This document shows positions 4,849 to 61,202 of a DNA stretch of 64,000 nucleotides, piece after piece (positions within the stretch are counted from its first letter, which is position 1; each line of letters opens with the position of its first letter). Origin of the DNA: Escherichia coli (GTDB taxonomy: Bacteria > Pseudomonadota > Gammaproteobacteria > Enterobacterales > Enterobacteriaceae); the NCBI RefSeq assembly GCF_024700885.2, contig NZ_CP117016.1; one strand, given 5' to 3'. Under the pieces are notes generated by a model, which had not been told where the DNA came from, did not search any database, and was given only the letters and a program-made list of their open reading frames with translations. The translations under genes were made by a program, and so were the position numbers.

Positions 4849-5964
4849 TTACAGGCAGCGTGCGACAGCAGCCTCATAGCTGATGCCTTCTTTTTTGGAC
4901 AGGGCCACTGCTTTCTGATGCAGGGCCAGACGCTCAGGATCGGCTTCCGCAAACTCTGCCACATCCACCTTCACCGTGTCGCCGACACGCTCTTTTGTGG
5001 CCTGTTCGGCGAAATTCATCACCGGCTCCCCGTCGGAGAGCAATGAACGAAAGGCGGTGGCCAGCGGTGTGCGGCTTTCCCCCTCAGCAAACTCCACCGG
5101 CTTGTCGCCACCGGCGACGGCATCCAGCAGGGCAACCACCACGGAGGAGGCGCGGGGAGCCAGACGGCCCTCTGCGACCAGTTTTTCTGCAAAGGCCACA
5201 TTGTCCTTATGCAGTTGCTCCTGTCTGACCTGTGCATCACGCGCATCGCGATCAGCAGCCTGCTGCTTCAGGCGGCGGTTCTCCTCCTGAAGGGCTTCAA
5301 TCTCTTCTTTTGTCATCGATGATTCCTCGTTACTTGCGGAAGACGGCACCTGGCCTGTCTCACTGAATTGCGCACCTGCTGCATCCTGCGACGGTGTGTC
5401 GCGGTACGCCTCTTCGCGCAGATTGTTGAGCTGCCATTCCGGCAGGACTTTTTCTGCTTCGTCCAGACTGAAGCGGGCGATCAGAAAATCGCGCAGCTTT
5501 CCCCACAGGGAGGCATTCGTGATGGCCTGCCAGTCGGCGAACTCCACCACACCTTCTTCCTGCTCACTGAAGGACACCTGTTTCAGCCCCTTGACGGAAG
5601 GTGGCTGTGCCCCGAGAAAGCCCACATGGCGCAGGTAGAGCACGCCGGGCTTCGGATTGGACGGTGAATCCGGGAGGTAGAAAGAGGCGGACACTTTTTT
5701 GAATCGTCCGTCGGTGACCATCTCAGCAAACTGCGGGTCCAGCTGGGCAGGCTCTGCCATCAGATCGACGCCGCTGAGCGACAGGGCTTTCACCCAGCCC
5801 CACGCCGGGTCTTCCGTTCTGGGATGACCAATCACGAGTGGTGCTTCATGGACGGACGGGTCATAGGCTTTCACGCAGGCGGCAAGATCGTCTGGCGTGA
5901 ACGGCAGTTTTTTGCCGTGCATATCGGTATGAGTACCGGCTTTAAAAATGTGAATGGCTGACAT
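4849..5964 (-). CDS. phage head maturation protease/scaffold (Mu I-like)
   Basis: 371 aa with acidic, Glu/Ala-rich coiled C-terminal half typical of I/Z scaffold; position upstream of major head gene. Confidence 0.7.
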   Translation of the reverse strand: MSAIHIFKAGTHTDMHGKKLPFTPDDLAACVKAYDPSVHEAPLVIGHPRTEDPAWGWVKALSLSGVDLMAEPAQLDPQFAEMVTDGRFKKVSASFYLPDSPSNPKPGVLYLRHVGFLGAQPPSVKGLKQVSFSEQEEGVVEFADWQAITNASLWGKLRDFLIARFSLDEAEKVLPEWQLNNLREEAYRDTPSQDAAGAQFSETGQVPSSASNEESSMTKEEIEALQEENRRLKQQAADRDARDAQVRQEQLHKDNVAFAEKLVAEGRLAPRASSVVVALLDAVAGGDKPVEFAEGESRTPLATAFRSLLSDGEPVMNFAEQATKERVGDTVKVDVAEFAEADPERLALHQKAVALSKKEGISYEAAVARCL

Positions 5965-6178
5965 TTTGCTGTCCCGCGTTATGTTGTCGGAGACAGTTTG
6001 TGAGAAATGCAGGCCCGGCGATTTTAATCTGCTTTAGAAAACATCAGGGGAGAAGGACAGGGAAAGCAATACGGTGAACCGGAGGCGGTTATAAAACAGA
6101 GGCTGTAAAGCCTTTATAAAGGTAATACAGCCCCTCATTCGCTGGCAATGATAAATCACCCGCCTGAAGAGAGAAAAC

Positions 6179-6637
6179 TCAGCGACGGGCCGCTGATTCA
6201 AGATGGCGGACAATGGTATCGAGGATGGGGATTACCACTTCAGGCTGTAGTTCTCCATCCCCCGTCACCGGCAGGAACGGGCGGGCCGGAAGTTCAACAG
6301 ACTCATTACGCCCCGTTTTACCCCCGAACTGGTGAATGGCACCGTAAACAACGTTGGTCCCCACAACAGCCTGCCGGTCGTCATGGTCGGTTGATACTGA
6401 CCCCATCAGACGCCCGGTATCCTGCAGTGTCTGCCCGTCACGCTCTTCCGCTGCCAGCGAGGGCATCCACCCCGGACGCCCCTCATCAAGAAAGTTAAAC
6501 TGTGTTTCCGCCAGCAGGGTTCCGGCAATTTTGCGCATCGCGGGCTCCAGGTCTGTGGCAGCAAGATCCAGCGCACGGAGGCTCCGGCGCAGGGATTTAT
6601 CGTTAATGGTGATACTGACCAGGTTATCGGAAGCCAT
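6179..6637 (-). CDS. phage virion morphogenesis protein (Mu G-like)
   Basis: 152 aa immediately downstream of the F-like gene. Confidence 0.6.
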   Translation of the reverse strand: MASDNLVSITINDKSLRRSLRALDLAATDLEPAMRKIAGTLLAETQFNFLDEGRPGWMPSLAAEERDGQTLQDTGRLMGSVSTDHDDRQAVVGTNVVYGAIHQFGGKTGRNESVELPARPFLPVTGDGELQPEVVIPILDTIVRHLESAARR

Positions 6638-47282: not shown

Positions 47283-48689
47283 TTAATCCAGCCATTCGGT
47301 ATGGAACACACCTTCTTTATCAATACGCTTATAAGTATGCGCACCAAAATAGTCACGCTGTGCCTGGATCAGGTTCGCAGGCAGAACAGCAGCACGGTAG
47401 CTGTCGTAATAGGCAACCGCTGCGGAGAAGGTCGGAACCGGAATACCGTTCTGTACTGCATAAGCAACGACATCACGCAGCGCCTGCTGGTAGTCATCGG
47501 CAATTTGCTTGAAGTACGGAGCCAGCAGCAGGTTAGCGATCTGCGGATTTTCGGCATAAGCATCGGTGATTTTCTGCAGGAACTGCGCACGGATGATGCA
47601 GCCAGCACGGAAAATCTTCGCGATTTCGCCGTAGTTCAGATCCCAGTTGTACTCTTCAGACGCAGCACGCAGCTGAGAGAAGCCCTGGGCGTAAGAAACG
47701 ATTTTGCCCAGATACAGCGCACGACGAACTTTTTCGATGAACTCAGCCTTGTCGCCTGCTGGCTGTGCTTGCGGACCAGAGAGAACTTTAGATGCGGCAA
47801 CACGCTGATCTTTCAGAGAAGAGATATAACGTGCAAACACAGACTCGGTAATCAGCGACAGCGGTTCGCCGAGATCCAGCGCGCTCTGGCTGGTCCATTT
47901 ACCGGTACCTTTGTTAGCCGCTTCATCCAGGATCACATCAACCAGGTAGTTACCGTCTTCATCTTTTTTGGTGAAGATATCTTTGGTGATGTCGATCAGG
48001 TAACTGCTCAGTTCACCGTTATTCCACTCGGTAAAGGTCTGCGCCAGTTCTTCGTTGGTGAGGTTCAGGCCACCTTTAAGCAGAGAATAGGCTTCAGCAA
48101 TCAGTTGCATATCACCGTATTCGATACCGTTGTGAACCATCTTCACATAATGGCCTGCGCCATCGGCACCAATATAGGTAACGCATGGCTCCCCGTCTTC
48201 AGCTACTGCGGCGATTTTGGTCAGGATTGGTGCAACCAGTTCATAGGCTTCTTTCTGCCCACCAGGCATAATAGAAGGACCTTTCAGCGCGCCTTCTTCA
48301 CCACCGGAGACACCGGTACCAATGAAGTTAAAGCCTTCGGCAGAAAGTTCACGGTTACGACGAATGGTGTCCTGGAAGAAGGTATTGCCACCATCAATGA
48401 TGATGTCACCTTTATCGAGATATGGTTTGAGGGAATCAATAGCAGCATCCGTGCCTGCACCTGCTTTCACCATTAACAGGATGCGACGAGGCGTTTCCAG
48501 AGATTCAACAAACTCTTTCACCGTATAGTAAGGAACCAGTTTCTTGCCTGGATTTTCGGCAATCACTTCTTCCGTCTTTTCACGGGAACGGTTGAAAATA
48601 GAGACGGTATAACCACGGCTTTCGATGTTGAGCGCAAGGTTGCGCCCCATCACTGCCATACCGACTACGCCGATCTGTTGCTTTGACAT
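47283..48689 (-). CDS. gnd: 6-phosphogluconate dehydrogenase (decarboxylating)
   Basis: [21 protein letters not shown], 468 aa. Confidence 0.9.
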
Positions 48690-48806: not shown

Positions 48807-49205
48807 TCACACGAACGATTTTGCAAAAGAAGGGTCAAATGGCCCCTCCTTAACTTCCACCATAAGAGCACGCGGAGATAGGCATTCGACACTGTGTATA
48901 TCGCCCGGAGAAAACTCCACAATGCTCATTCCAGTATTATCTCCTGCTATAAATTGCTTTATAACCTCACCATTTCTACCATACAAACAAACCTGAAGTT
49001 GCCCCTCCATAACAATGAACATTTCCCACTGATGAGGAAGTTCGTGATAATGCGGTTCAACATAGCTGCCCTTTACTAATGCAATAAGTAAACGCTGTAC
49101 CTTTTCTTGATGCGAGCCGTGCATCATAAGGTGGGAACGTAAACGTTCCGATTGCCCGGCTTGATCATATAATTCGTCGAGTTGGTCATTATCAATTAAT
49201 CGCAT
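48807..49205 (-). CDS. wbuC: WbuC-like cupin protein of L-FucNAc O-antigen clusters
   Basis: 132 aa, last gene before gnd, overlapping the upstream GT stop. Confidence 0.5.
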   Translation of the reverse strand: MRLIDNDQLDELYDQAGQSERLRSHLMMHGSHQEKVQRLLIALVKGSYVEPHYHELPHQWEMFIVMEGQLQVCLYGRNGEVIKQFIAGDNTGMSIVEFSPGDIHSVECLSPRALMVEVKEGPFDPSFAKSFV

Positions 49206-50406
49206 TGCATGCCTCCAACCTCATTTCTATCGTCTGTGCCGCAGACTCAACGGAGAATTGTTCTTTCAACAATATATTCGCCCCCGAACCAAGTTGCCGG
49301 CGCACATCAATATCATGCAACATTAATAGCGCAGATTGACATAATTTATCGTCCTCACCATTGACATGGATTAATCCCGCATTATTTTGATTGACAATGT
49401 CGAGCAAATCATTTCCGGCATTTACGCTACCTAAAATAGGTAGCGACTGAACCATATAGCCTAATAACTTACCAGGAAAATTATGGGAAGAGTGTCTAGC
49501 GGAAAGAGAAAACAAGCCGATATCCATTTCCGACAAAATGAACTTAAATTCATCTTGGTTAACCGAGGGCAAATAGGTGAAATTCGTCAATGCCCACTCA
49601 GATGCTAATGAATTAATTAATTCAACTTCATCCCCCTGGCCAATAAATAGGAAATGAGCTTGAGGATATGCTGCCATGTTTCTCACAAGTCGCATCAAGT
49701 TTGTCATGTCCTGTGCATGACCTATGTTTCCACCATAGAAGAAAATGGTTTTATCCTCTAGGCCAAGTCGCTTACGTAGTGGTATATAATCCTTGGGTAT
49801 GATCGTTGGTGTTAGGGATGCCCAATTACGCAAAACTTCGCACGGATAGCCTTTATTATCTTTCCGAAAAACATCAAGATTCTTATCAGACATAAGTCCA
49901 ATACGATTTGCCTGACGATAAGATATTTTTTCAAAAAGACGAAAGTAGCGTTCTATTGGGGAACCAGCATTAAGCATTCCTGCATCAATTACCCATTGTG
50001 GAAACATATCTCTTAAAATAAGATAAGCAGGACATTGGCAACGAGCTTTAATTTTTTTAACTAAAGGCCCCCAGAATATGGAAGGTGAATAATAAATCAC
50101 CCCCTCAAAGGTCTCTTTTTTTACCCATTTTTTGATGGCTTTCCACGCCCGATAGGACAAAAGCGTTTCATTGACCGCTCGCTGAATTTTACTTACATCC
50201 TTGAGCGGCCCGCTTTTAAAACGCCATGTTTTTACCCCCTGAAAGGTATCAAAAGAAATCTCTTCTTGCATGCCCGTACCAGGAGTAATTACCGTAACAT
50301 CGTGCCCACGCTGGATAAATTCTTGAGCAAGTTCATGAAACATTTTTGCACCAACACGAGTACTGTTGGGCAGGTAATCATCTATGATTAAAGCAAGTTT
50401 CATCAA
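49192..50406 (-). CDS. wbuB: glycosyltransferase family 4 (putative L-FucNAc transferase WbuB-like)
   Basis: 404 aa directly after fnlC. Confidence 0.65.
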   Translation of the reverse strand: MMKLALIIDDYLPNSTRVGAKMFHELAQEFIQRGHDVTVITPGTGMQEEISFDTFQGVKTWRFKSGPLKDVSKIQRAVNETLLSYRAWKAIKKWVKKETFEGVIYYSPSIFWGPLVKKIKARCQCPAYLILRDMFPQWVIDAGMLNAGSPIERYFRLFEKISYRQANRIGLMSDKNLDVFRKDNKGYPCEVLRNWASLTPTIIPKDYIPLRKRLGLEDKTIFFYGGNIGHAQDMTNLMRLVRNMAAYPQAHFLFIGQGDEVELINSLASEWALTNFTYLPSVNQDEFKFILSEMDIGLFSLSARHSSHNFPGKLLGYMVQSLPILGSVNAGNDLLDIVNQNNAGLIHVNGEDDKLCQSALLMLHDIDVRRQLGSGANILLKEQFSVESAAQTIEMRLEACNAIN

Positions 50407-51533
50407 TATTCTTTCCAGACGACTCTCTTAACATAATCTGTGTAAGAGTGAACAATTCTGACAACTTTATCCGACACATTTGGCATGCTGTAATCACTAA
50501 CCTGACGTAAAAGACGGACTTCACCTCGCGGTTGTGTTGCCAGAATATCCAGCGCTTGTAATACGCGTTCACACTCTAACCCCACCATCATGACGGATGC
50601 TTCCTCAAAGCCTTCCGGACGCTCATGCGCTTCCCGGATGTTTACCGCTGGGAAATTCATGATGGATGACTCTTCAGTGATAGTACCGCTATCTGAAAGC
50701 ACAGCTCGTGAGTTCTTCTGCAAGTGGTTATAATCATGGAAACCCAATGGTTTCAGTAGATTTATATTTGAATGAAATTCAATTCCTTGCTCACGGATTC
50801 GGTTACGTGTCCTTGGGTGTGTGGAGACAATAACTGGAAGATTATATTTTTCAGCAACAGTATTTAGAATGTTCGCAAGCTTTACGAGCTGTTTTGGAGA
50901 ATCAACATTCTCTTCACGATGCGCACTTACTACAAAAAACTCACCAGACTGTAGATTCAAACGCGATAGCACATCTGAACCATCAATTTGGGGCATATAA
51001 TATGAAAGAACCTCAAACATAGGGCTACCAGTTTTTATGATCCGATCAGCTGGGATACCTTCAGCCAAGAGATATTCACGAGCAATATCACTGTAGGTCA
51101 TATTGATATCAGCCGTATGGTCAACAATACGTCTGTTGGTTTCTTCAGGCACGCGTTGATCGAAACAACGGTTACCTGCTTCCATATGAAATATAGGCAC
51201 TTTACGGCGTTTGGCCGGAATGGCAGAAATACATGAATTCGTATCGCCCAATACCAGTATTGCTTCAGGTTTTTCGATTTCTAATACTTCATCTACCTTA
51301 ATAATAACCTGACCAATGGTTTCCGCCGCATTTTTACCCGCTGCATTTAAAAAATAATCAGGTTTTCGAACACCCAAGTCATTGAAGAACACTTCATTTA
51401 ATTCGTAATCATAATTTTGACCAGTATGGACAATAATATGCTCGCAGTATTCATCAAACTTAGCAAGAACCCTCGACAAACGGATAATCTCAGGACGGGT
51501 TCCAACAACAGACATAACTTTTAATTTTTTCAT
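50403..51533 (-). CDS. fnlC: UDP-N-acetylglucosamine 2-epimerase (FnlC)
   Basis: 376 aa non-hydrolysing 2-epimerase signature. Confidence 0.8.
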   Translation of the reverse strand: MKKLKVMSVVGTRPEIIRLSRVLAKFDEYCEHIIVHTGQNYDYELNEVFFNDLGVRKPDYFLNAAGKNAAETIGQVIIKVDEVLEIEKPEAILVLGDTNSCISAIPAKRRKVPIFHMEAGNRCFDQRVPEETNRRIVDHTADINMTYSDIAREYLLAEGIPADRIIKTGSPMFEVLSYYMPQIDGSDVLSRLNLQSGEFFVVSAHREENVDSPKQLVKLANILNTVAEKYNLPVIVSTHPRTRNRIREQGIEFHSNINLLKPLGFHDYNHLQKNSRAVLSDSGTITEESSIMNFPAVNIREAHERPEGFEEASVMMVGLECERVLQALDILATQPRGEVRLLRQVSDYSMPNVSDKVVRIVHSYTDYVKRVVWKEY

Positions 51534-52636
51534 TATAGAGGTCTCGCAATAGTATCGGGCTCATCACGGTTGAAAATTTCATTTGCCCAGAGCATGACTA
51601 TTAATTCATCAGTTCCAATATTTGTAATGTCATGTGTCCAACCAGGAACTGTTTCAACAATCTTAAACTCACCCGATGAAACTTTCAGTTCATATCGCTC
51701 ACCGGTAATCACATGTTCAAATTTAAAGCATGCCTGACCTCGAATGACCAAAAACTTCTCATTTTTACTGTGATGGTAATGTCCGCCACGCGTAATACCA
51801 GGGTGAGCAGTAAAAAATGAAAACTGCCCCGCTGAAGGCGTTTTCAACATCTCACAAAAGACTCCGCGGGCATCCCCATAAAAAGGTACCTTGTACGCAA
51901 ACTTCTCTGCTGGTAAATAACTCAGCCATGTAGAATACAATGCACGGGTAAATCCCGCCCCGACAGCCTCTGTGATCAGGGTGGAACGGCTATTTTTGAA
52001 GCTATAAATTAATTCTGCAACTTCACCAACTGTTGTTGAATAAATTGGTGCAACAACTTTATATCCACTTTCAACCGTCCCAGAGAGAAGAGCTATAGCA
52101 TCAGTACAAACATCATCAATATAGACCAGATTGACTGGCGCTGCTGCATCATTGATAGTAATCTCAATATCATTGGAAATATTGTAGCAAAAAGTTGCTA
52201 TAAAAGAATTATAGTTTGGCTTACACCATTTACCAAAAACGTTTGGATATCTGAAAATATAATACGAAGAACCACTAGCAGCAGCATATTTTTCGACATA
52301 GCTTTCAGCTACAGCTTTGCTAACCCCATAAGCATTATTAAGTTCAGCTTGTATCGAAGAACTTAGCATAATTGGTGTATTCTTACCAATAGAAAGGAGA
52401 TACTCAACTATATGCTTTGTTAAATCACTGTTTCCAGAAATAAACTCATCATCAGTCTTAGGTCTATTGATACCAGCTAAGTGATAAATAAAATCGGCAT
52501 CCTGTAAGCCTTGTTCAAGATCTTGCTTCGTTGATTCTCGATCAATTCTAATAAGATCTTTATAACCAAGTTCCTCAAGCCTCAAACATAAATTACGACC
52601 AATAAAACCATTTGCACCAGTAACTAATATTTTCAT
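51533..52636 (-). CDS. fnlB: FnlB-like reductase/epimerase (Cap5F-like)
   Basis: MKILVTGANGFIG Rossmann start; track ORF trimmed. Confidence 0.75.
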   Translation of the reverse strand: MKILVTGANGFIGRNLCLRLEELGYKDLIRIDRESTKQDLEQGLQDADFIYHLAGINRPKTDDEFISGNSDLTKHIVEYLLSIGKNTPIMLSSSIQAELNNAYGVSKAVAESYVEKYAAASGSSYYIFRYPNVFGKWCKPNYNSFIATFCYNISNDIEITINDAAAPVNLVYIDDVCTDAIALLSGTVESGYKVVAPIYSTTVGEVAELIYSFKNSRSTLITEAVGAGFTRALYSTWLSYLPAEKFAYKVPFYGDARGVFCEMLKTPSAGQFSFFTAHPGITRGGHYHHSKNEKFLVIRGQACFKFEHVITGERYELKVSSGEFKIVETVPGWTHDITNIGTDELIVMLWANEIFNRDEPDTIARPL

Positions 52637-52637
52637 A

Positions 52638-53672
52638 TCATGAATCCAGATTATATTTTTCACCAGCACGAATTGCTCGAATAAAGGCTAATTTTAGCAA
52701 GAGCTCTTTCATGCCTTCAACATCTAACCGTTGAGTATTATGAGAGTTATAATCTTCTATTTCAGATATTCGGCTATCACCTTGCTCAACATATTTGCCA
52801 TAATTAAGGTCACGAAGATCTGGCGGGACACGGTAATAATCGCCCATATCTATAGCAGCGATCATTTCCTCACGACTAAGTAGAGCTTCATATAATTTCT
52901 CGCCATGACGCGTTCCAATGACATTTACCGGATGGTCAGGAACATTTAGTAATTCCTTTAAAGCAATAGCTAATGTGTCAATAGTTGCTGCAGGTGCTTT
53001 TTGCACAAAGATATCACCATTATTACCATGTTCAAACGCATAAAGAACTAAATCTACCGCATCCTCAAGAGTCATCATAAAGCGGGTCATATTAGGATCA
53101 GTTATTGTGAGTGGCTTGCCCGCTCTAATAAGATCAACAAATAATGGAATAACTGAACCGCGAGATGCCATAACATTCCCATAACGGGTACCACATATTA
53201 CTGTTTTATTGCGATCAACATTACGGGATTTCGCGACCATGACCTTTTCCATCATAGCTTTTGAAATACCCATTGCGTTAATCGGGTATACAGCTTTATC
53301 AGTACTTAGGCATACAACCCTCTTCACTTCATTCGCTATAGCTGCTTCAAGAACATTTTCCGTACCAAGGATATTAGTTTTAACGGCTTCCATAGGATGA
53401 AATTCACATGATGGAACTTGCTTAAGTGCCGCTGCATGATATATAAAATCAACACCGCGAGTCGCATTCAAAATACTACGGTAATCTCTGACATCACCAA
53501 TATAGAACTTTAATTTTTGATTATTGTATTTTTTCCGCATATCATCTTGTTTTTTTTCATCACGACTAAATATACGGATTTCTGCAATATCTGTATCAAG
53601 AAATCTATTTAATACAGCATTCCCGAAAGAGCCAGTACCACCAGTAATTAACAGTGTTTTAGATGAAAACAT
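52638..53672 (-). CDS. fnlA: UDP-GlcNAc 4,6-dehydratase/5-epimerase (FnlA/CapE-like)
   Basis: TGGTGSFG motif, 344 aa. Confidence 0.85.
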   Translation of the reverse strand: MFSSKTLLITGGTGSFGNAVLNRFLDTDIAEIRIFSRDEKKQDDMRKKYNNQKLKFYIGDVRDYRSILNATRGVDFIYHAAALKQVPSCEFHPMEAVKTNILGTENVLEAAIANEVKRVVCLSTDKAVYPINAMGISKAMMEKVMVAKSRNVDRNKTVICGTRYGNVMASRGSVIPLFVDLIRAGKPLTITDPNMTRFMMTLEDAVDLVLYAFEHGNNGDIFVQKAPAATIDTLAIALKELLNVPDHPVNVIGTRHGEKLYEALLSREEMIAAIDMGDYYRVPPDLRDLNYGKYVEQGDSRISEIEDYNSHNTQRLDVEGMKELLLKLAFIRAIRAGEKYNLDS

Positions 53673-53713
53673 AATAACCGAACCTCAAATCATTGACAAA
53701 TATACTCTGGAAG

Positions 53714-54892
53714 CTATTTACTTACTTGACCTAACTTATTAGTAATTGAACTCTGTCCACTAAGTGTTACTCTATTCAAAAACATATATATAAAAGATAG
53801 AAAGAAATAGCCGTTAGATCCTAAAACTAAACCTTTGGTATTGAAAATTATCCCAATTAACATCCATATAATTGCTTGATATGTCATTCCAAATGTCGCA
53901 ATAGAAATAGTAAAGATTAAAAATAAAAAGAGTGTAATAAATGTTAACCCACCGTAATTAAACAGTATAACCCAGCCCATATCCGAACTTTGTTTAATAT
54001 CGGGGATTGATGAAGATATGTTTTGCTGTAATCCAAATATAATATTAAAAAAATCTAAATTACCTACAACAAACACATGTTGCTGTAATAAGATATCCAG
54101 AGTTCTTGTGCCATCTCCAGAAACGAACTCATCATAAAATCGAGGAAAGAACACTGCTCCTAAGCTATAAACTAAAACTCCCAAAATCAATACTGTTGCA
54201 ATTTTTATATTAATATTAAGTCTAGAGCAACCGATACCAATAATGGCTGCAATCACAGCCATGTTAGAATTTACGATTTGAGTCAGACAAATTAAAGTAA
54301 TTAAAGCATAACGCCTTTTCATCATAAAAAATGACATATAGATCATCAAAAATGGTGTCATGAAATTTATTTCACCCGACAACCCAAATCCTCTTACTTT
54401 AGCATTTTGTTCCCAAAGATTAACAGAGTCAGACATACCAAAGAAAGTATATAACAATCTTTTTAACTCTGGACTTATATACATACCAAAAAAAATAACT
54501 ATTTGAACCCAGAGAGAATACACTAATATTCGCTCCATTAATTTCAAGTCACCCTTTATGAATCTATTTACTAAATAATACGCAGGAACAAATGAAAATA
54601 AAAACAACATAAATAATCTAACGGTAAAATAACTTTGAAAAGAATGGCTTTTTTGAAACAAATCGAAAACCAAACAAAATAAAAAAATAATTATGAATAT
54701 AGATAACAGCAACAAATTTTTACGATCTATAGATACCAATCCATTGCCCATAGTAATCATAAAATTACGCACTAAATACATAATACCAAAAAATGCAGGA
54801 ATAAATGCCAAATATAAGAAAGGTATTATCAGCGACAATCTAAAAAAAACAACAAAAAATAATAAAAAAGCCATCAATGCATTATACTTCAT
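53714..54892 (-). CDS. wzy: O-antigen polymerase (Wzy-like)
   Basis: 392 aa polytopic membrane protein, very AT-rich gene. Confidence 0.55.
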   Translation of the reverse strand: MKYNALMAFLLFFVVFFRLSLIIPFLYLAFIPAFFGIMYLVRNFMITMGNGLVSIDRKNLLLLSIFIIIFLFCLVFDLFQKSHSFQSYFTVRLFMLFLFSFVPAYYLVNRFIKGDLKLMERILVYSLWVQIVIFFGMYISPELKRLLYTFFGMSDSVNLWEQNAKVRGFGLSGEINFMTPFLMIYMSFFMMKRRYALITLICLTQIVNSNMAVIAAIIGIGCSRLNINIKIATVLILGVLVYSLGAVFFPRFYDEFVSGDGTRTLDILLQQHVFVVGNLDFFNIIFGLQQNISSSIPDIKQSSDMGWVILFNYGGLTFITLFLFLIFTISIATFGMTYQAIIWMLIGIIFNTKGLVLGSNGYFFLSFIYMFLNRVTLSGQSSITNKLGQVSK

Positions 54893-54941
54893 TGTTTTTT
54901 ACCTTCCATACAAATGTCTTAATAAATGAAGATAGCATCAT

Positions 54942-55928
54942 CTATATATACCAGTTCTTAAGCAAATCATCTGTTTTTGAGGTGCCACGCTCTCCAATAC
55001 CATGTATATATGCCGAAATCAACACATATCTGTAAAGAATTGGGAAATAGAGTTTTTTATTTGCATCTGTTTTTTTTAAAAATTGTATTATTTTTTTAAA
55101 AATAAATTTATTGAAAAATATTGATTGGCATATTTTACTAAACGTTTTGTGTTTACTAAATATTTTCTCAACTAGGAATAATTTTTTATTAGTAGAAAAC
55201 ATTTCAGGCCTTACTTTGCTTAATACATTCATACCATCACGTGCTGTAGCACGAATTTTTTTTGTATATCCTTCTATATCGCCACTGTATTCGTGATGTA
55301 ATATTTTAAAATCAGCAAAAATAATTTTGAAGTCATTTTTTTCAAGTTGCCACCCAAACTCATGATCTTCACAACCATAACCAATAAAATTTTCATTATA
55401 TGAAACTATACCTGATGAAAATGCCTTTCTATCAAGAACACAATTCATTGCGACAAAAGTCCAGGCATTCATAGAGATATCAGGACTATCACTAAACTTA
55501 GGGTGTAAAGAGTTCCTGTAGCGATAGTAATTGCTGGTCTCAATGAGTTCATTTTCGAATCTAACTTCCCCACATAAAACGCTTTTACTATTCATTTTTT
55601 TTAAATAGTTCAGCAACGATGATATATATCCACTTGCGGGTATACAATCATCATCAAGAAATATTAAATAATCCCCATGGGCTAGGGATGCTCCGAAATT
55701 GCGCTTAGCGGAGAGTATATTTTTAGTATGTTGATGGATAATATTAATATTTTTCTTTTTATGAATATTATCAGCAACTACATCATCAATTTCTTTACCA
55801 CTATGACTATCGGAAACAATTACTTCTAGGTGTAGACTATTGTCTTTAGCCTGAGAATCGAGCTCAGAGAGAATCAATTCTAATTGAACTGGGCGTTTCC
55901 AAACAGATATTATTACCGAGATATTCAT
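54942..55928 (-). CDS. glycosyltransferase family 2
   Basis: 328 aa, LIFLDDDCIP DxD region. Confidence 0.7.
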   Translation of the reverse strand: MNISVIISVWKRPVQLELILSELDSQAKDNSLHLEVIVSDSHSGKEIDDVVADNIHKKKNINIIHQHTKNILSAKRNFGASLAHGDYLIFLDDDCIPASGYISSLLNYLKKMNSKSVLCGEVRFENELIETSNYYRYRNSLHPKFSDSPDISMNAWTFVAMNCVLDRKAFSSGIVSYNENFIGYGCEDHEFGWQLEKNDFKIIFADFKILHHEYSGDIEGYTKKIRATARDGMNVLSKVRPEMFSTNKKLFLVEKIFSKHKTFSKICQSIFFNKFIFKKIIQFLKKTDANKKLYFPILYRYVLISAYIHGIGERGTSKTDDLLKNWYI

Positions 55929-57169
55929 AATTTATGAGGCCTACATACGGTTTTATTTACTTTAATGAATTGTTTAAGCATTCCCATGCCAACGAAAATT
56001 TCAGCTACAATAAGACTCACAATCGCACCCGTTGCTCCATAATATTTACATGCTGGATAAACTATGCTTAAACAAGTAATAGTTCCTAGGAAAATAGATT
56101 TGAAATACTGTTTTTGCATCCCATTAGGTACTAATACAAGTAACCCGACAACTGTATTAAAACCTATGAATATAGGAAGCAATGTCATTAATTGCATTGC
56201 ACCTGCAATTACTTCACCTTTCATGCCGAATATTAATAATGATAATTGGTTGGCAAAAAGTAAAAATGGTATTGCTAAAGCCATGTAAAAAACAAGCAAG
56301 TATTTAAGAATCATTCTAGATTTTAAGTTTGCAATATATGGATTCTCTCTTTGCAAAATGTTAATTCTTGGATAAAAAGCTTGGACTAATGGTGATGCAA
56401 GTCCAGCCAAACCTTGTTTGATCATGTTAGCTGAGTTAAAGATGCCTACATCAAACTTTCCAGATACGCCACCCAATACAAGAGGGGTCAACATTGTGTA
56501 TGCACTAGTCGCAAGTGTTGAACAAAAAAAATGAAATCCATTTTTTAAAATTACTTGAATTTTCTTTATCGGTGGCCTACATAAAAAAATCTCCTTGATA
56601 ATAAGTAAGTAGGCAACGCCACAGAATGAATACAAAATATATGGCATGCTCAATAATAAGGCACTGATGTACATCGGCGTTGCGGGTTTTATAATTAGAT
56701 AAACTGCAACGACTGCTATGCCTCGTGAAAATAGTGACAGCACAGCCATCACACTCATCATTTCCTTACCTTGCAAAAACCAATTTGGATTGAAAACACC
56801 TGCAATTACGGACAGAAAACCAACACATAACAAAGACTTAACGTCGTTAAAAACATAAAAAAAACAGAGTATTATGAGTATTATAGCTGCAATTAGCATT
56901 AATATAAAACGAGCAAGCACCACACCGCAAAAAAATTCAGAATGGTATTTTTTATCGTTATTTAGTGCTATTTCTCTTGTCCCACTATATCCAAAACCAT
57001 ATTCAACAACCATTAACAACACTTGTATAGTTATCAATGAAAAACTCAGATCACCAAAATTCGATACACCAATGACTCTAACAAGATAAGGAAAAATTAA
57101 TAATGGCAGTAGGTAATTGGCACCCTGACTTATTGCAAGGTAAAGAACATTTAGTTTAGTTTTGCTCAA
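55925..57169 (-). CDS. wzx: O-antigen flippase (Wzx)
   Basis: 414 aa, 12-TM polysaccharide exporter; first gene of the cluster. Confidence 0.75.
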   Translation of the reverse strand: MSKTKLNVLYLAISQGANYLLPLLIFPYLVRVIGVSNFGDLSFSLITIQVLLMVVEYGFGYSGTREIALNNDKKYHSEFFCGVVLARFILMLIAAIILIILCFFYVFNDVKSLLCVGFLSVIAGVFNPNWFLQGKEMMSVMAVLSLFSRGIAVVAVYLIIKPATPMYISALLLSMPYILYSFCGVAYLLIIKEIFLCRPPIKKIQVILKNGFHFFCSTLATSAYTMLTPLVLGGVSGKFDVGIFNSANMIKQGLAGLASPLVQAFYPRINILQRENPYIANLKSRMILKYLLVFYMALAIPFLLFANQLSLLIFGMKGEVIAGAMQLMTLLPIFIGFNTVVGLLVLVPNGMQKQYFKSIFLGTITCLSIVYPACKYYGATGAIVSLIVAEIFVGMGMLKQFIKVNKTVCRPHKL

Positions 57170-57237
57170 TGAAGTGCCCCATATACAACAGATATCATTC
57201 GAGTAACTTATTCACATGAATCAATAAGTTGTTTATT

Positions 57238-58335
57238 CAGGGCAAGATTACGAAAGCCCGCTCCCCGCAAGAACTGACGCCAGATAGTTTCTGTCCATGG
57301 CTGCTTTTCGCATCTTACGTCTTAACCCTGCCTTGAATACCTTATCATTCGTCAAAATATTAATAGCAATGTGCCGTATCCCTGAAAATAAATCTGCTGC
57401 ATTTCCTCTTCTTATTTTGCAGTCGTCTTCATTCATTACCACGTCCAGACGCCAGTGCAGCTTATTCTCCACGTGCCAGTGGTTTCGGATTGCTGTGGCG
57501 AACTTCTCTGCGGTTAAATCAGCAGAACTGATATAATATCTGACCGTCATTTCTGGCTCTTTCTTTTGTTCTGCTATTATTGACCGAAAGGAGACTGCCA
57601 CGCATAATTTCTTCAGACCTTTCCATTCAAACGTGAAATCAAAAAGTTCATCAGGGACATCGCAAACAATATGAAGACGGATTTCGTCTCTGCCGTGACT
57701 CTTTTCACTCATTGCGTAACTGTCATGCTCTGGATTATTTAATTCTTTCAGTGGAAATTTTTCCTCAAAGGCTTTATTAAGCCGCCCCTGATTTCCTTTT
57801 ACAGCGAATAAATAATCACCGCCCTGTTTTTGTATCTTCTCTGCAATATCTTTCTGGCAACCCATCGCATCAGTTGTGATGATTTTTCCTTTAATATCCA
57901 GCATGTTAAGAAGTTCAGGGATAGCTGTAATTTCATTGGATTTCTCATCCGTCCTGATCTGTCCGATGACCAGACTGTGCATTGTTGAGAACGCACTAAT
58001 GACATGAATCGCTCCCTTGCGGCGACTCTTGTCATAAGAATGCCGGAGTGTTTTTCCATCAATTGCGATGAAGTCTTTATCATCTGAAGAATGGCAGTCA
58101 CGCATCCAGTTAATAAAGCACTCGTGAAATTTTGCAGGACTGATACAGGATACAACTCTGGCAATGGTATCGTGAACAGGAATACCATTTTCAAAATCAC
58201 CATATTGCTTCAAAAAATCGAGATGTGTTTCCCCAAAATCCTCTATATCTTCCCAGCCTTCTGCACCCGAAATAACGGCACAAATAGTCAACAGTAGAAT
58301 ATCCGACAATTTATGTTCCACTTTCCAGGCTTGTC
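57238..58335 (-). mobile_element. ISAs1-family (H-repeat-like) element, outer copy body, interrupted at 58335 by a nested copy
   Basis: Begins with CAGGGCAAGATTACG terminus; 1097-bp periodicity with the next copy; the missing 5' part reappears at 59626-59829. Confidence 0.75.
57248..58321 (-). pseudogene. ISAs1-family transposase lacking its first ~20 codons (split by nested IS)
   Basis: About 95% identical by eye to the intact downstream copy; N-terminal codons found at 59626-59685. Confidence 0.7.
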
Positions 58336-59625
58336 AGGGAAAGATTACGAAAGCCCGCACCCCGCAAGGACTGACGCCAGATAGTTTCTGTCCATGGCTG
58401 CTTTTCGCATCTTACGTCTTAACCCTGCCTTGAATACCTTATCATTCGTCAAAATATTAATAGCGATGTGCCGTATCCCTGAAAATAATTCTGCTGCATT
58501 TCCTCTTCTTATTTTGCAGTCGTCTTCATTCATTACCACGTCCAGACGCCAGTGCAGCTTATTCTCCACGTGCCAGTGATTTCGGATCGCTGTGGCGAAC
58601 TTTTCTGCGGTTAAATCAGCAGAACTGATATAATATCTGACCGTCATTTCTAGCTCTTTCTTTTGTTCTGCTATTATGGACCGAAAGGAGACTGCCACGC
58701 ATAATTTCTTCAGTCCTTTCCATTCAAACGTGAAACCAATAAGTTCATCAGGGACATCGCAAACAATATGAAGACGGATTTCTTCTCTGCCGTGATTTTT
58801 TTCACTAATTGCGTAACTGTCATGCTCTGGATTATTTAATTCTTTCAGTGGAAATTTTTCCTCAAAGGCTTTATTAAGCCGCCCCTGATTTCCTTTTACA
58901 GTGAATAAATAATCACCGCCCTGTTTTTGTATCTTCTCTGCAATATCTTTCTGGCAACCCATCGCATCAGTTGTGATGATTTTTCCTTTAATATCCAGCA
59001 TGTTAAGAAGTTCAGGGATAGCTGTAATGTCATTGGATTTCTCATCCGTCCTGATCTGTCCGTTGACCAGACTGTGCATTGTTGAGAACGCACTAATGAC
59101 ATGAATCGCTCCCCTGCGGCGACTCTTGTCATAAGAATGCCGGAGTGTTTTTCCATCAATTGCGATGACGTCTTTATCATCTGAAGTATGGCAATCTCGC
59201 ATCCAGTTAATAAAGCACTCGTGAAATTTTGCAGGACTGATACAGGATACAACTCTGGCGATGGTATCGTGAACAGGAATACCATTTTCAATATCACCGT
59301 ATTGTTTTAAAAAATCGAGATGTGTTTCCCCAAAATCCTCTATATCTTCCCAACCTTCTGCACCAGAAATAACGGCACAAATAGTCAACAGTAGAATATC
59401 CGATAATTTATGTTCCACTTTCCAGGCTTGTCTGTAATCGGGGATAATAGAAATATGTTCCATCAATTTTTTAAGTTCCATTTTGTTCTCCTTAATTATG
59501 TAAGGAGTATTTGATCATGTATAAGCAATAAAAAACAGCTTTATGTAATGAGGAATATCTCAATTTTTAAACATAAAATGCGAATTGTTTAGTACAAAAA
59601 AGCAGCATTACGTGATCTTTCCCTG
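58336..59625 (-). mobile_element. ISAs1-family element, complete nested copy (1290 bp)
   Basis: Terminal inverted repeats CAGGGAAAGA / TCTTTCCCTG; flanked by the direct repeat CCAGGCTTGT. Confidence 0.8.
58345..59481 (-). CDS. ISAs1-family transposase (H-repeat-associated protein), intact
   Basis: 378 aa, [26 protein letters not shown]... Confidence 0.85.
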
Positions 59626-59829
59626 CCAGGCTTGTCTGTAATCGGGAATAACAGAAATATGTTCCATCAATTTTTTAAGTTCCATTTTGTTCTCCTTATT
59701 TAAGCAAGGAGTATTTGATCATATATAAGCTGTGAAAAACAGTTTTAGGTAATGAGGGATATCTCAATTTTTGAACATAAAATGCGAATTATTTAGTACA
59801 AAAAGTGTACTTCTGATAATCTTTCCCTG
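59626..59829 (-). mobile_element. 5' end of the outer ISAs1-family copy (first ~20 codons, leader, terminal IR)
   Basis: Starts with the 10-bp duplication CCAGGCTTGT and ends with IR TCTTTCCCTG at 59820-59829. Confidence 0.75.
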
Positions 59830-59837
59830 CCCCTAGA

Positions 59838-59876
59838 CACGCTACCGCCCCTGGCTTTACAGCTACCAGAGCACTG
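59838..59876 (-). promoter_or_regulatory. JUMPstart element with ops (GGCGGTAGCGTG) for RfaH-dependent antitermination
   Basis: Reverse complement reads CAGTGCTCTGGTAGCTGTAAAGCCAGGGGCGGTAGCGTG. Confidence 0.85.
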
Positions 59877-60134
59877 CATGCATGCCTACGATGTAGCGAG
59901 CGTTACCCACTCGCGCTAAACCCGAAAAATTCAAACGCTAATTGTCTTACCAATCCGCTCTGGAAACAAGGAAAATCCTGGAAAACTTTGACTAAAATCC
60001 TATTGCTAACTCGTTGTTATTCTGATTGTTTATATAAAACAACGGCAGGAAAATTCGCAGCAAATTACTTTCGCCACGAATCTTCACTGCCGTTATAATT
60101 TTCTTATCAACCGTTACATTCGGTCAGATTTTCA

Positions 60135-61028
60135 TTATTCGCTTAACAGCTTCTCAATCCCTTTACGGAACTTCGCCCCTTCTTTCAGGTTGCGTAGTCC
60201 ATACTTCACAAATGCCTGCATATACCCCATTTTTTTACCGCAGTCGTAGCTGTCACCTGTCATCAGCATGGCATCAACGGACTGTTTTTTCGCCAGTTCA
60301 GCGATGGCATCAGTCAGCTGAATACGCCCCCATGCACCAGGCTGAGTGCGTTCAAGTTCCGGCCAAATATCTGCAGAAAGCACATAGCGACCAACGGCCA
60401 TGATGTCTGAGTCCAGCGTCTGCGGCTGATCCGGTTTTTCGATGAATTCAACAATGCGGCTGACTTTACCTTCACGGTCCAGTGGTTCTTTGGTCTGGAT
60501 GACCGAGTATTCAGAGAGGTCACCCGGCATACGTTTTGCCAGCACCTGGCTACGGCCCGTTTCATTGAAACGCGCAATCATGGCAGCAAGGTTGTAGCGC
60601 AGCGGGTCGGCACTGGCGTCGTCGATCACAACGTCCGGCAGTACCACGACAAATGGATTGTCACCAATGGCGGGTCGTGCACACAAAATGGAGTGGCCTA
60701 AACCTAAAGGTTCGCCCTGACGCACGTTCATAATGGTCACGCCCGGCGGACAGATGGACTGCACTTCCGCCAGTAGTTGACGCTTCACGCGCTGTTCAAG
60801 GAGAGATTCTAATTCATAAGAGGTGTCGAAGTGGTTTTCGACCGCGTTCTTGGACGCGTGAGTTACCAGGAGGATTTCTTTGATCCCTGCAGCCACAATC
60901 TCGTCAACGATGTACTGAATCATTGGCTTGTCGACGATCGGTAGCATCTCTTTGGGAATCGCCTTAGTGGCAGGCAACATATGCATCCCAAGACCCGCTA
61001 CAGGAATAACTGCTTTTAAATTCGTCAT
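60135..61028 (-). CDS. galF: UTP-glucose-1-phosphate uridylyltransferase regulatory subunit GalF
   Basis: [32 protein letters not shown]; start trimmed. Confidence 0.85.
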
Positions 61029-61202
61029 TATTTCATCCACCTGTAAAATGGTTGCTGAATTATAGCTTGTTCGATTTTTTTCGCCAGCATCAATTACCCT
61101 GAATTGATTACTGAATTACTTGTGATGTTACGCCGCTTCGTTGTGGATTGCAGTAGCATTGTTCCTAAGTATGGCTCCATTTTTCCAGGAATGGTCGCAA
61201 AT

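Follow-up and report, generated by a model that had tools for sequence, protein, structure and literature searches.

The O15 O-antigen cluster and its operon head

The window, that is, the whole stretch of 64,000 nucleotides of Escherichia coli DNA that was analysed, carries between gnd (47283-48689) and galF (60135-61040) a group of genes that, judged by sequence, is the O15 O-antigen cluster (48807-57169, minus strand). In the direction of transcription, and all on the minus strand, it comprises wzx (55925-57169; TTG start, in agreement with the start in RefSeq, where the product is named 'O15 family O-antigen flippase'), a GT2 gene (54942-55928), wzy (53714-54892; the O15 family polymerase of RefSeq), fnlA (52638-53672; FnlA, 758 bits), fnlB (51533-52669; WbcJ-type reductase, 551 bits), fnlC (50403-51533; WecB-type epimerase, 221 bits), a wbuB-like GT4 gene (49192-50406), and wbuC (48807-49205; WbuC, 143 bits). 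All eight biosynthetic genes are intact, and no O-antigen gene is interrupted by an insertion sequence (IS). With fnlABC, two transferases, wzx, and wzy, the set is self-consistent for a FucNAc-containing unit; a structure of the O15 polysaccharide has been published, to go by a title cited in PMC7685785. The same set (wzx, GT2, wzy, fnlABC, GT4, and wbuC) makes up related, IS-free clusters in Salmonella enterica, where the gene order differs, and in another enterobacterium, where wzx is likewise the first gene of the module. Homology with the latter, a relative from another genus, sets in 26 bp before wzx. Its module shares 88% identity with that of O15, compared with only 73% for its galF/wca flank, suggesting that the O15 module has moved between genera.

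Upstream of the cluster lies a JUMPstart element (59838-59876, minus strand), which matches Rfam RF01707 over the full model length with 60 bits against a gathering threshold of 35 (E = 1.4e-12). It shows the conserved sequence and structure by which we recognized such elements, with the ops motif GGCGGTAGnnTG at the 3' end; the 12-nt ops of the window, GGCGGTAGCGTG (59849-59838, minus strand), is exact. By analogy with the JUMPstart/ops family, we infer that downstream transcription depends on RfaH. Between ops and wzx, there is a block of 2.6 kb of IS DNA, separated from ops by the 8 bp TCTAGGGG (operon strand; 59830-59837) and from wzx by a 68-bp leader (57170-57237, minus strand). The 26 bp of this leader adjoining wzx (57170-57195) are common to the related cluster of the other genus, while the 42 bp adjoining the IS (57196-57237) are specific to O15 and have no relative elsewhere in E. 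coli. The leader as a whole is 100% identical in 98 O15 genomes and absent from all other E. coli searched.

Anatomy and family of the nested insertion sequences

Direct reading and a reconstruction test both confirmed the original prediction that one ISAs1-family element is inserted into another, with a 10-bp direct repeat at the junctions. The outer copy spans 57238-59829 and consists of two parts (57238-58334 and 59626-59829), on the minus strand like the operon; its ends read CAGGGCAAGATT and AATCTTTCCCTG. Between the two parts lies a complete, ISEc1-like element (58335-59625, minus strand) with the ends CAGGGAAAGATT and GATCTTTCCCTG and an intact gene for a 378-aa transposase (58345-59481). 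This inner element had been predicted to be complete, which it is, and 1290 bp long, whereas its measured length is 1291 bp. It is flanked by the target-site duplication CCAGGCTTGT at 58325-58334 and 59626-59635, the second copy of which opens the promoter-proximal part of the outer element. When 58335-59635 is taken out, a 1291-bp element with an unbroken 378-aa transposase frame results. A CCAGGCTTGT repeat whose removal restores both an intact IS and its open reading frame is no chance feature. As had been foreseen, the outer transposase is split: the distal 1097 bp (57238-58334, minus strand) retain a truncated frame of 357 aa (57248-58321) that lacks the N-terminus, and the promoter-proximal 204 bp (59626-59829, minus strand) hold the terminal repeat, the leader, and the first 21 transposase codons.

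The inner copy and the reconstructed outer copy are 95.5% identical, with 58 differences and no gaps, and the transposase frames of both run on the minus strand, i.e., in operon orientation. In the terminal repeats of the inner copy, the first 11 of 11 bases agree, followed by about 15 of 22, and in those of the outer copy, 12 of the first 13 do. Of the two, the outer copy is the nearer to the single IS of the O15:H12 strain 2273-PO3, with 25 differences against 62 for the inner copy. The flanks of the outer copy, GTTGTTTATT and CCCCTAGACA, bear out the claim that it has no target duplication, and its position 8 bp after ops and 68 bp before wzx, in the orientation of the operon, was likewise found to be as described.

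Family membership is clear from the transposases, since NCBIfam NF033564 (ISAs1 family transposase equivalog; cut-off 70 bits) scores 404 bits with the inner 378 aa and 414 bits with the outer 357 aa. ISAs1 family elements encode a DDE transposase in a single frame, measure about 1.2-1.5 kb, and end in short terminal inverted repeats; both copies are 1291 bp long, with one long transposase frame each. Of the family's target-site duplications, which we took to be about 8-10 bp, the inner copy shows an example and the outer copy does not, a lack that we read as a later rearrangement. DNA identical to the inner element is annotated in RefSeq as an ISAs1 family transposase, some near-identical copies bear the label 'ISAs1-like element ISEc1 family transposase', and the copies of the window share 95-97% DNA identity with ydcC-linked and Rhs-linked copies. 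The isoform name ISEc1-like, which we give to the inner element, is drawn from these labels and from its identity to ydcC-type copies. The likeness to ISEc1, or the H-repeat (H-rpt; yhhI, ydcC, and ybfD in K-12), extends to the length of 1291 bp, the single gene for a transposase of about 378 aa matching NF033564, the CAGGG... terminal repeats, and the 10-bp target duplication, which also flanks an independent ISEc1-like copy elsewhere (TGTTTAACGC). In contrast to ISEc1, the window has a copy within a copy where an O-antigen operon begins, and of the two the outer is inactivated and without target duplication.

With regard to transcription through the block, a hairpin of the form CUCCUUA-loop-UAAGGAG covers the Shine-Dalgarno sequence of the inner transposase gene (59488-59507, minus strand), and a twin lies in the outer copy (59692-59711). 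Their folding energies are -8.0 and -7.6 kcal/mol (z = -2.3 and -1.65), with conserved stems and differing loops. A scan for a promoter that the IS might supply to wzx showed no promoter-like site facing outward close to the IS end next to wzx, the counts being at the level of shuffled sequence.

Distribution among O15 genomes

We surveyed 5,426 complete E. coli genomes, 98-99 of which contain the O15 wzx; the wzx region is 99.6-100% identical in the 98 RefSeq genomes labelled 'O15 family O-antigen flippase'. All 98-99 O15 genomes have an IS at exactly this place. Of the IS-free clusters of the same serogroup with which a comparison had been suggested alongside the original prediction, not one exists among the 5,426 genomes. 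The carriers come from a wide range of hosts and countries, and some were deposited as O15:H18 or O15:H12, although some of the serotypes in strain names may be in-silico assignments. Neither DebRoy 2016 nor Iguchi 2014 takes up the IS of O15 in the main text.

The locus occurs in several forms. In 38 O15 genomes the insert is no longer than 2 kb and is a single IS or a 1495-bp recombinant with identical flanks, whereas flank-only queries point to the nested form in about 60. As one alignment piece, at 98.6-100% identity, the nested structure was recovered from at least 40 independent complete genomes. The single-IS form is bounded by GTTGTTTATT and CCCCTAGACA, identical to the outer flanks of the window; precise excision of the inner copy would yield the same single-IS structure. 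Recombinant variants comprise, besides the 1495-bp form, one with an 11-bp duplication and a reciprocal swap of positions about 568-1042 and one whose outer part is truncated to 929 bp. In every strain cross-checked (about 20), the wzx allele was 99.9-100% identical to that of the window if the genome was nested and 99.7% identical if it had a single IS.

Two queries were set aside as counts. A 240-bp query over the left junction of the inner copy gave 1,745 'full' matches in which pieces from ordinary single IS copies had been joined, and the 34-nt query of ops plus 8 bp was uninformative, as other ops operons and partial alignments exceed the 80% mark. We also rejected strain PKF4 as a case of wzx deletion adjacent to the IS, because long poly-C and poly-G runs at that place mark an assembly artefact.

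Insertion sequences at other operon heads

The O3, O63, and O88 clusters, the last of them also in its reference strain NCTC9088, carry an ISAs1 element in operon orientation after ops. They share with O15 the IS family, the orientation, the upstream JUMPstart, and the first 8 bp after ops (TCTAGGGG); in contrast to O15, each has one, partly decayed copy, accompanied in O63 by a further fragment, and a conserved spacer of about 78-85 bp separates this copy from ops; of that spacer, O15 keeps only the first 8 bp. The O3/O63/O88 copies are 88-96% identical to the O15 copy. In O16, O18, O103, and O6, the sequences diverge directly after ops. Orthology of the O15 IS with the O3/O63/O88 copies may be proposed from the 8 shared bases and the context. 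We discarded the idea that the IS of O3 and that of O15 go back to the same insertion event, as the two are only 90% identical and the former lies 85 bp further from ops, which leaves deep orthology at most.

Mobile elements within the galF-gnd cluster are also represented by IS629 in O18ab, ISEc11 in O164, IS1 in O62, and IS5 in wbbL of K-12, where the insertion abolishes the O antigen. Such simple insertions set one member of a serogroup or a laboratory strain apart from its relatives, whereas the O15 IS is fixed across the serogroup and interrupts no gene. Several simple IS insertions in E. coli O-antigen clusters disrupt no gene either (PMC4379981). Of 178 E. coli O-antigen clusters, 23 contain mobile elements, which have been read as traces of earlier genetic events (PMC7685785). 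A closer parallel is the cluster of Salmonella enterica group D2, in which an H-repeat remnant lies at the recombination junction; as in O15, an ISAs1-family element stands at a boundary of DNA of different origin and is interpreted as a trace of cluster assembly (PMC3715488). The D2 remnant sits mid-cluster, between halves derived from D1 and E, whereas the O15 copies are complete, nested, and situated between JUMPstart and the first gene, with no donor/recipient pair identified.

Discussion

We consider it very probable that the window presents the normal 5' end of the O15 cluster, carrying the historical scar of two transposition events that left every O-antigen gene intact. An ISEc1-like element would have come to lie between JUMPstart/ops and wzx before the known O15 clusters diverged. 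Because the outer copy has no target duplication and only 8 bp of the spacer are left, its junctions would stem from an IS-associated rearrangement rather than from a simple insertion, whether by deletion of adjoining DNA or by a second insertion with later recombination between the copies. In one O15 sub-clade, a copy diverging by 4.5% would then have transposed into the first, generating the 10-bp duplication and splitting the resident transposase. This order, single form first and nested form later, is proposed from allele sharing in the about 20 cross-checked genomes. Recombination between the nested direct repeats would later have given rise to the several variants of length and sequence.

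RfaH makes RNA polymerase resistant to pausing, to Rho, and to intrinsic terminators. Loaded at ops, upstream of the insertion, it would carry polymerase in the sense direction across the 2.6 kb of IS and into the operon genes, and such read-through by the modified polymerase is the presumable reason why the IS is tolerated. The hairpin over the ribosome-binding site would in turn limit translation of the transposase from read-through RNA. From conservation and strain names, we infer both RfaH-dependent read-through and normal levels of O15 LPS. Present in every O15 strain examined, the insertion is old, fixed, and apparently harmless, an ordinary feature of a known kind.

A wider reading, which is conceivable though we would not favor it, holds that the ISAs1 element at the operon head is an ancient piece of portable homology, or a transposition vehicle, that moved the O3, O15, O63, and O88 modules behind a constant JUMPstart. 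Four serogroup clusters have such an operon-oriented element just after ops, three of them sharing spacer and junction; an ISAs1 end adjoins JUMPstart in 178 genomes; the copies differ by 4-12%, as expected of old cluster-linked DNA; and the O15 module itself seems to have crossed between genera. A precedent is the H-repeat of the Salmonella D2 cluster, at its recombination junction (PMC3715488), and replacement associated with IS elements has been noted for E. coli clusters (PMC4379981; PMC7685785). However, the related module of the other genus has no ISAs1 remnants next to it, and within the window there is no second IS at the gnd end of the O15 cluster (no ISAs1 frame in 44.7-57.2 kb). One ancestral operon head with ordinary recombination of the downstream genes could give the shared position as well, and we obtained no direct sign of IS-mediated transfer. 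Tentatively, and with some doubt, ISAs1 after ops may be viewed as an ancient orthologous fixture of O3, O15, O63, and O88 (about 3% of complete genomes), tolerated with the help of RfaH and acting as portable homology or vehicle, of which O15 would be a derivative with the spacer lost and a second copy nested.

It is improbable that the 2.6-kb foreign segment that separates ops from wzx acts as a polar insertion, lowering RfaH-dependent O-antigen expression and leaving strains semi-rough or low in O antigen. The IS pair does sit between the only recognizable ops and the first gene, and Rho would as a rule be expected to terminate transcripts over a lengthy region with little or no translation. 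There is also one terminator-like hairpin on the operon strand (57690-57674), albeit a weak one and the sole one there: terminator-like sites are not enriched (5 against 2.3 +/- 1.5 expected from shuffling), and four of the five lie on the other strand. In a published NCTC 86 stock, wzx and wbuS are gone from this locus because of a deletion linked to the IS (PMC5382810), which makes the IS a liability, though by deletion and not by polarity. Against polarity stand the occurrence of the IS in each of the 98-99 O15 genomes, which cover many hosts and countries and include none free of it, the intactness of all eight biosynthetic genes, and the similarly placed ISAs1 elements of O3, of O63, and of the O88 type strain. 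Moreover, RfaH, a known suppressor of Rho and of terminators, loads upstream of the IS. The original prediction had raised attenuation of RfaH-dependent O-antigen expression and had itself named a fixed, benign insertion as the finding that would speak against it; because this is largely what we found, the idea is unsupported, although a quantitative effect on expression is still conceivable.

Still less probable is the second possibility raised there, that the outer IS marks the deletion of biosynthetic genes from the 5' end of a once larger cluster. The missing target duplication, the 8 bp remaining of a spacer of about 80 bp in O3, O63, and O88, and the 42 bp next to the IS without relative elsewhere in E. 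coli would agree with a deletion, and IS-adjacent deletions do happen at this locus (PMC5382810). Yet the IS-free clusters of Salmonella enterica and the other enterobacterium consist of exactly these eight genes, with wzx first in the latter, the gene set is self-consistent for a FucNAc-containing unit, and the demonstrable loss is non-coding spacer. Gene loss is therefore not supported, whereas the weaker form of the idea, an IS-associated rearrangement of the junction, is borne out by the absent duplication and the shortened spacer.

Finally, that the nested structure arose in assembly, or by one IS being duplicated in tandem, has hardly any probability: although 1.3-kb repeats at 95% identity are hard to assemble and the public PKF4 genome has its poly-C/poly-G artefact exactly here, misassembly, which had been named as a possible objection, is ruled out by the at least 40 independent complete genomes with the same structure, the 58 differing sites argue against collapsed or duplicated reads, the reconstructed outer copy has its equal in a known single-IS form, and the three-part arrangement with its 10-bp overlap is the outcome of transposition, not of duplication.

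Striking as it looks, the nested IS ahead of this virulence-related operon is the standard, conserved state of serogroup O15, including the ST69 O15:H18 lineage, and no strain-specific lesion; the finding is of little weight in itself. The single, nested, and recombinant forms nevertheless offer ready markers for sub-lineages of the O15 cluster, and the 1.3-kb direct repeats make up a recombination-prone spot that can mislead assemblers and seed wzx deletions leading to rough variants. The ISAs1 position shared by O3, O15, O63, and O88 provides a small test case for the role of IS elements in O-antigen module exchange, and likewise for the extent to which antitermination by RfaH protects insertions that lie beyond ops.

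Structure of the nested ISAs1 pair in the O15 cluster

A megablast search of 5,426 complete E. coli genomes matched region 56900-60150 as a single piece, with 98.6-100% identity, in dozens of chromosomes, where RefSeq annotates wzx as 'O15 family O-antigen flippase' and adds two ISAs1 transposase features. Downstream of wzx follow genes for a GT2 transferase, wzy, fnlA, fnlB, fnlC, a WbuB-like GT4 transferase and wbuC, and the cluster then continues to gnd, ugd, wzz and the his operon. Based on the RefSeq wzx label and this gene content, the window therefore holds the O15 O-antigen cluster of E. coli plus flanking DNA. The longest ORF for fnlB (51533-52669) begins with GTG, encodes 378 aa and shares 32 bp with fnlA, whereas related loci annotate a protein of 367-368 aa starting just past fnlA, so the downstream start is probably the real one.

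On the minus strand, galF (61040-60135, from the ORF listing) is followed by a non-coding leader with JUMPstart (59876-59838; Rfam RF01707, 60 bits vs. a gathering score of 35), the IS pair (outer element, 57238-59829) and wzx (57169-55925; TTG start, 414 aa, same start as in RefSeq). The final 12 bases of JUMPstart are an exact ops motif, GGCGGTAGCGTG, from which only the 8 bases TCTAGGGG lead to an ISAs1-type terminal repeat. The inner IS (58335-59625, likewise minus strand) interrupts the outer element after outer position 1097 and has the 10-bp direct repeat CCAGGCTTGT on either side (58325-58334, 59626-59635). Removal of the inner IS and one repeat copy in silico restored an element of 1291 bp whose 378-aa frame is open; this element differs from the inner copy at 58 of 1291 positions without gaps (95.5% identity). 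Both transposase frames score against NCBIfam NF033564 ('ISAs1 family transposase'), at 404 and 414 bits (cut-off 70). The outer element, which ends 68 bp from the wzx start, is flanked by GTTGTTTATT and CCCCTAGACA and thus lacks a duplication. Direct reading and scripted boundary checks thereby confirmed the original prediction as to the nested insertion, its 10-bp repeat, the outer copy without duplication and the position; the inner element is complete as proposed, although it measures 1291 bp rather than 1290 bp.

Distribution of the single and nested forms

Among the 5,426 complete E. coli genomes, the wzx region and leader were found in 99, in 98 of them at full length. A synthetic 'empty site' query, in which the wzx leader was fused directly to JUMPstart, found both halves adjacent in none of the 5,426. 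A 3-kb flank-only query, designed to bridge inserts of up to 2 kb, was bridged in 38 genomes; in 19 of the 20 bridged genomes listed the insert is 1290-1291 bp, and in the remaining one 1495 bp. The other ~60 O15 genomes carry an insert bigger than this query allows, and single-piece alignment confirmed the nested form in at least 40 genomes. Misassembly as the origin of the nested structure is thus excluded.

The O15:H12 strain 2273-PO3 has a single IS with outer flanks exactly as in the window, which shows 25 differences from the reconstructed outer copy and 62 from the inner copy. Wherever strains could be cross-checked, wzx identity to the window is 100-99.9% for nested and 99.7% for single-IS genomes. 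On the simplest reading, the outer IS is older than any of the known O15 clusters, and a single insertion within one sub-clade accounts for the inner copy. The carriers were isolated from people, poultry, pigs, cattle, a wild bird and water; the historic strain NCTC86 is among them. The name E. coli ATCC 8739 is shared by two records whose O-antigen clusters differ: NZ_CP043852.1 has the O15 cluster with the nested IS, NC_010468.1 an O146 cluster. One of them is probably mislabelled or a different strain.

Recombination between ISAs1 copies

Strain PS1Phumofeces1 carries a chimeric IS plus a 204-bp fragment, 1495 bp in total, as expected if the outer-left part had crossed over with the inner copy. 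In an O15:H18 ST69 genome, the outer part contains a duplication of 11 bp (CAGGACTGATA), and at positions ~568-1042 the inner and outer alleles are exchanged reciprocally relative to the window, which argues for internal exchange between the nested repeats. In one NCTC86 assembly (CP019778.1) the outer-left part is shortened to 929 bp; this assembly also has fnlA annotated as frameshifted. For a published NCTC 86 genome, by contrast, an IS-linked loss of wzx and wbuS has been described (PMC5382810). Both outer junctions are unchanged in all variants examined.

A biological deletion in PKF4 (NZ_CP156662.1, ~4970-5070 of the extracted locus) was rejected, as the long poly-C/poly-G runs that replace wzx over its 5' two-thirds, together with the IS start, are an assembly artefact. 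In the ydcC and yafV regions of other E. coli strains, a decayed second copy often adjoins ISAs1 in tandem, and one right flank (TGTTTAACGC...) is joined to differing left flanks across strains, a pattern that implies rearrangements among ISAs1 copies at other chromosomal sites.

Gene content and operon read-through

The proposal that the IS marks a deletion of 5' cluster genes is not supported. Using O15 Wzx as the query, we located relatives and their contigs. Salmonella enterica has the identical set of eight genes between galF and gnd without any IS, albeit in a different order (fnlA-fnlB-fnlC-GT4-wbuC-wzx-GT2-wzy), and comparison with this cluster and that of a non-Escherichia enterobacterium gave no sign of a loss of 5' biosynthetic genes from O15. 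In the latter organism, 7.3 kb of the module starting at wzx show 88% identity with O15, whereas the wca-galF flank shares just 73% identity with E. coli; the module has therefore moved between genera. It is preceded there by an 82-aa rmlB remnant (4946-5194 of the extracted locus) and ~800 bp of non-coding DNA (5195-5975), suggesting that the O15-like module took the place of part of an rml-type cluster. The homology starts at window position 57195, 26 bp upstream of wzx, so that O15 and this enterobacterium share a module boundary at wzx, while the S. enterica gene order differs. The 42 bp from this boundary to the IS, and the 68-bp leader as a whole, occur in O15 genomes only. What is supported is a smaller, non-coding, IS-associated rearrangement at the junction.

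RfaH binds ops-paused polymerase, travels along with it and suppresses pausing as well as Rho and intrinsic terminators. With the IS pair in sense direction downstream of this loading site, the O15 operon would, on established knowledge, tolerate the insertion via the RfaH-modified polymerase. A single weak terminator-like hairpin was found on the operon strand (57690-57674), overall counts being at shuffle level. Before each transposase start, a 7-bp hairpin (CUCCUUA/UAAGGAG; -8.0 and -7.6 kcal/mol) pairs the Shine-Dalgarno sequence, with stems conserved and loops differing between the copies, and with modest statistical support (z = -2.3 and -1.65). Such masking hairpins are a known means by which IS elements avoid translation off read-through RNA. 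The suggestion that the pair attenuates O-antigen expression is disfavoured by a fixed insertion and an unchanged gene content. Strain serotype names, the same arrangement in the O88 type strain and the existence of a solved O15 structure, the title of which is cited in PMC7685785, suggest that O15 expression would be normal.

The operon head shared with O3, O63 and O88

Mobile elements were recorded in 23 of 178 E. coli O-antigen clusters (PMC7685785), IS-associated replacements have been described for such clusters (PMC4379981), and the Salmonella D2 cluster has an H-repeat remnant at its junction (PMC3715488). IS elements in O-antigen clusters, H-repeat/ISAs1 included, are thus well documented, the exact DNA of the window is already annotated in RefSeq, and the nested pair is a known kind of feature in a known place. 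Within limited literature coverage, we found no paper discussing the nested structure, which is not evidence of novelty, nor one discussing the ops-spacer-ISAs1 head shared by O3, O63, O88 and O15.

In O16, O18, O103 and O6, the sequence diverges directly after ops. In O3 (6130-6235 of the extracted locus), O63 and O88 (serogroup reference strain NCTC9088), by contrast, ops runs into TCTAGGGG plus a conserved ~78-85-bp spacer, after which comes ISAs1 in operon orientation, whereas O15 has the identical TCTAGGGG and then the IS at once, with no further spacer. The spacer opens with TCTAGGGGAAG(A/G)TCATCG, like a degenerate ISAs1 end, and in its start, AGGGGAAGATCATC, 13 of 14 positions agree with an ISAs1 terminal repeat; over window positions 59830-59849, O15 has just the first 8 bp of it in common. 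An ISAs1 end adjoins JUMPstart in 178 of the 5,426 genomes. Identity among the IS copies of the four serogroups is 88-96%, which marks them as old, cluster-linked DNA. An independent ISEc1-like copy at another site is flanked by a 10-bp duplication, so the absence of one around the O15 outer copy is meaningful. From the eight shared bases and the shared architecture, we infer that the O15 junctions may have arisen by an IS-associated event within an operon head of the O3/O63/O88 type, either by adjacent deletion or by insertion of a second copy at ops+8 that then recombined with the resident one. The one lead of mild interest is this shared operon-head IS.
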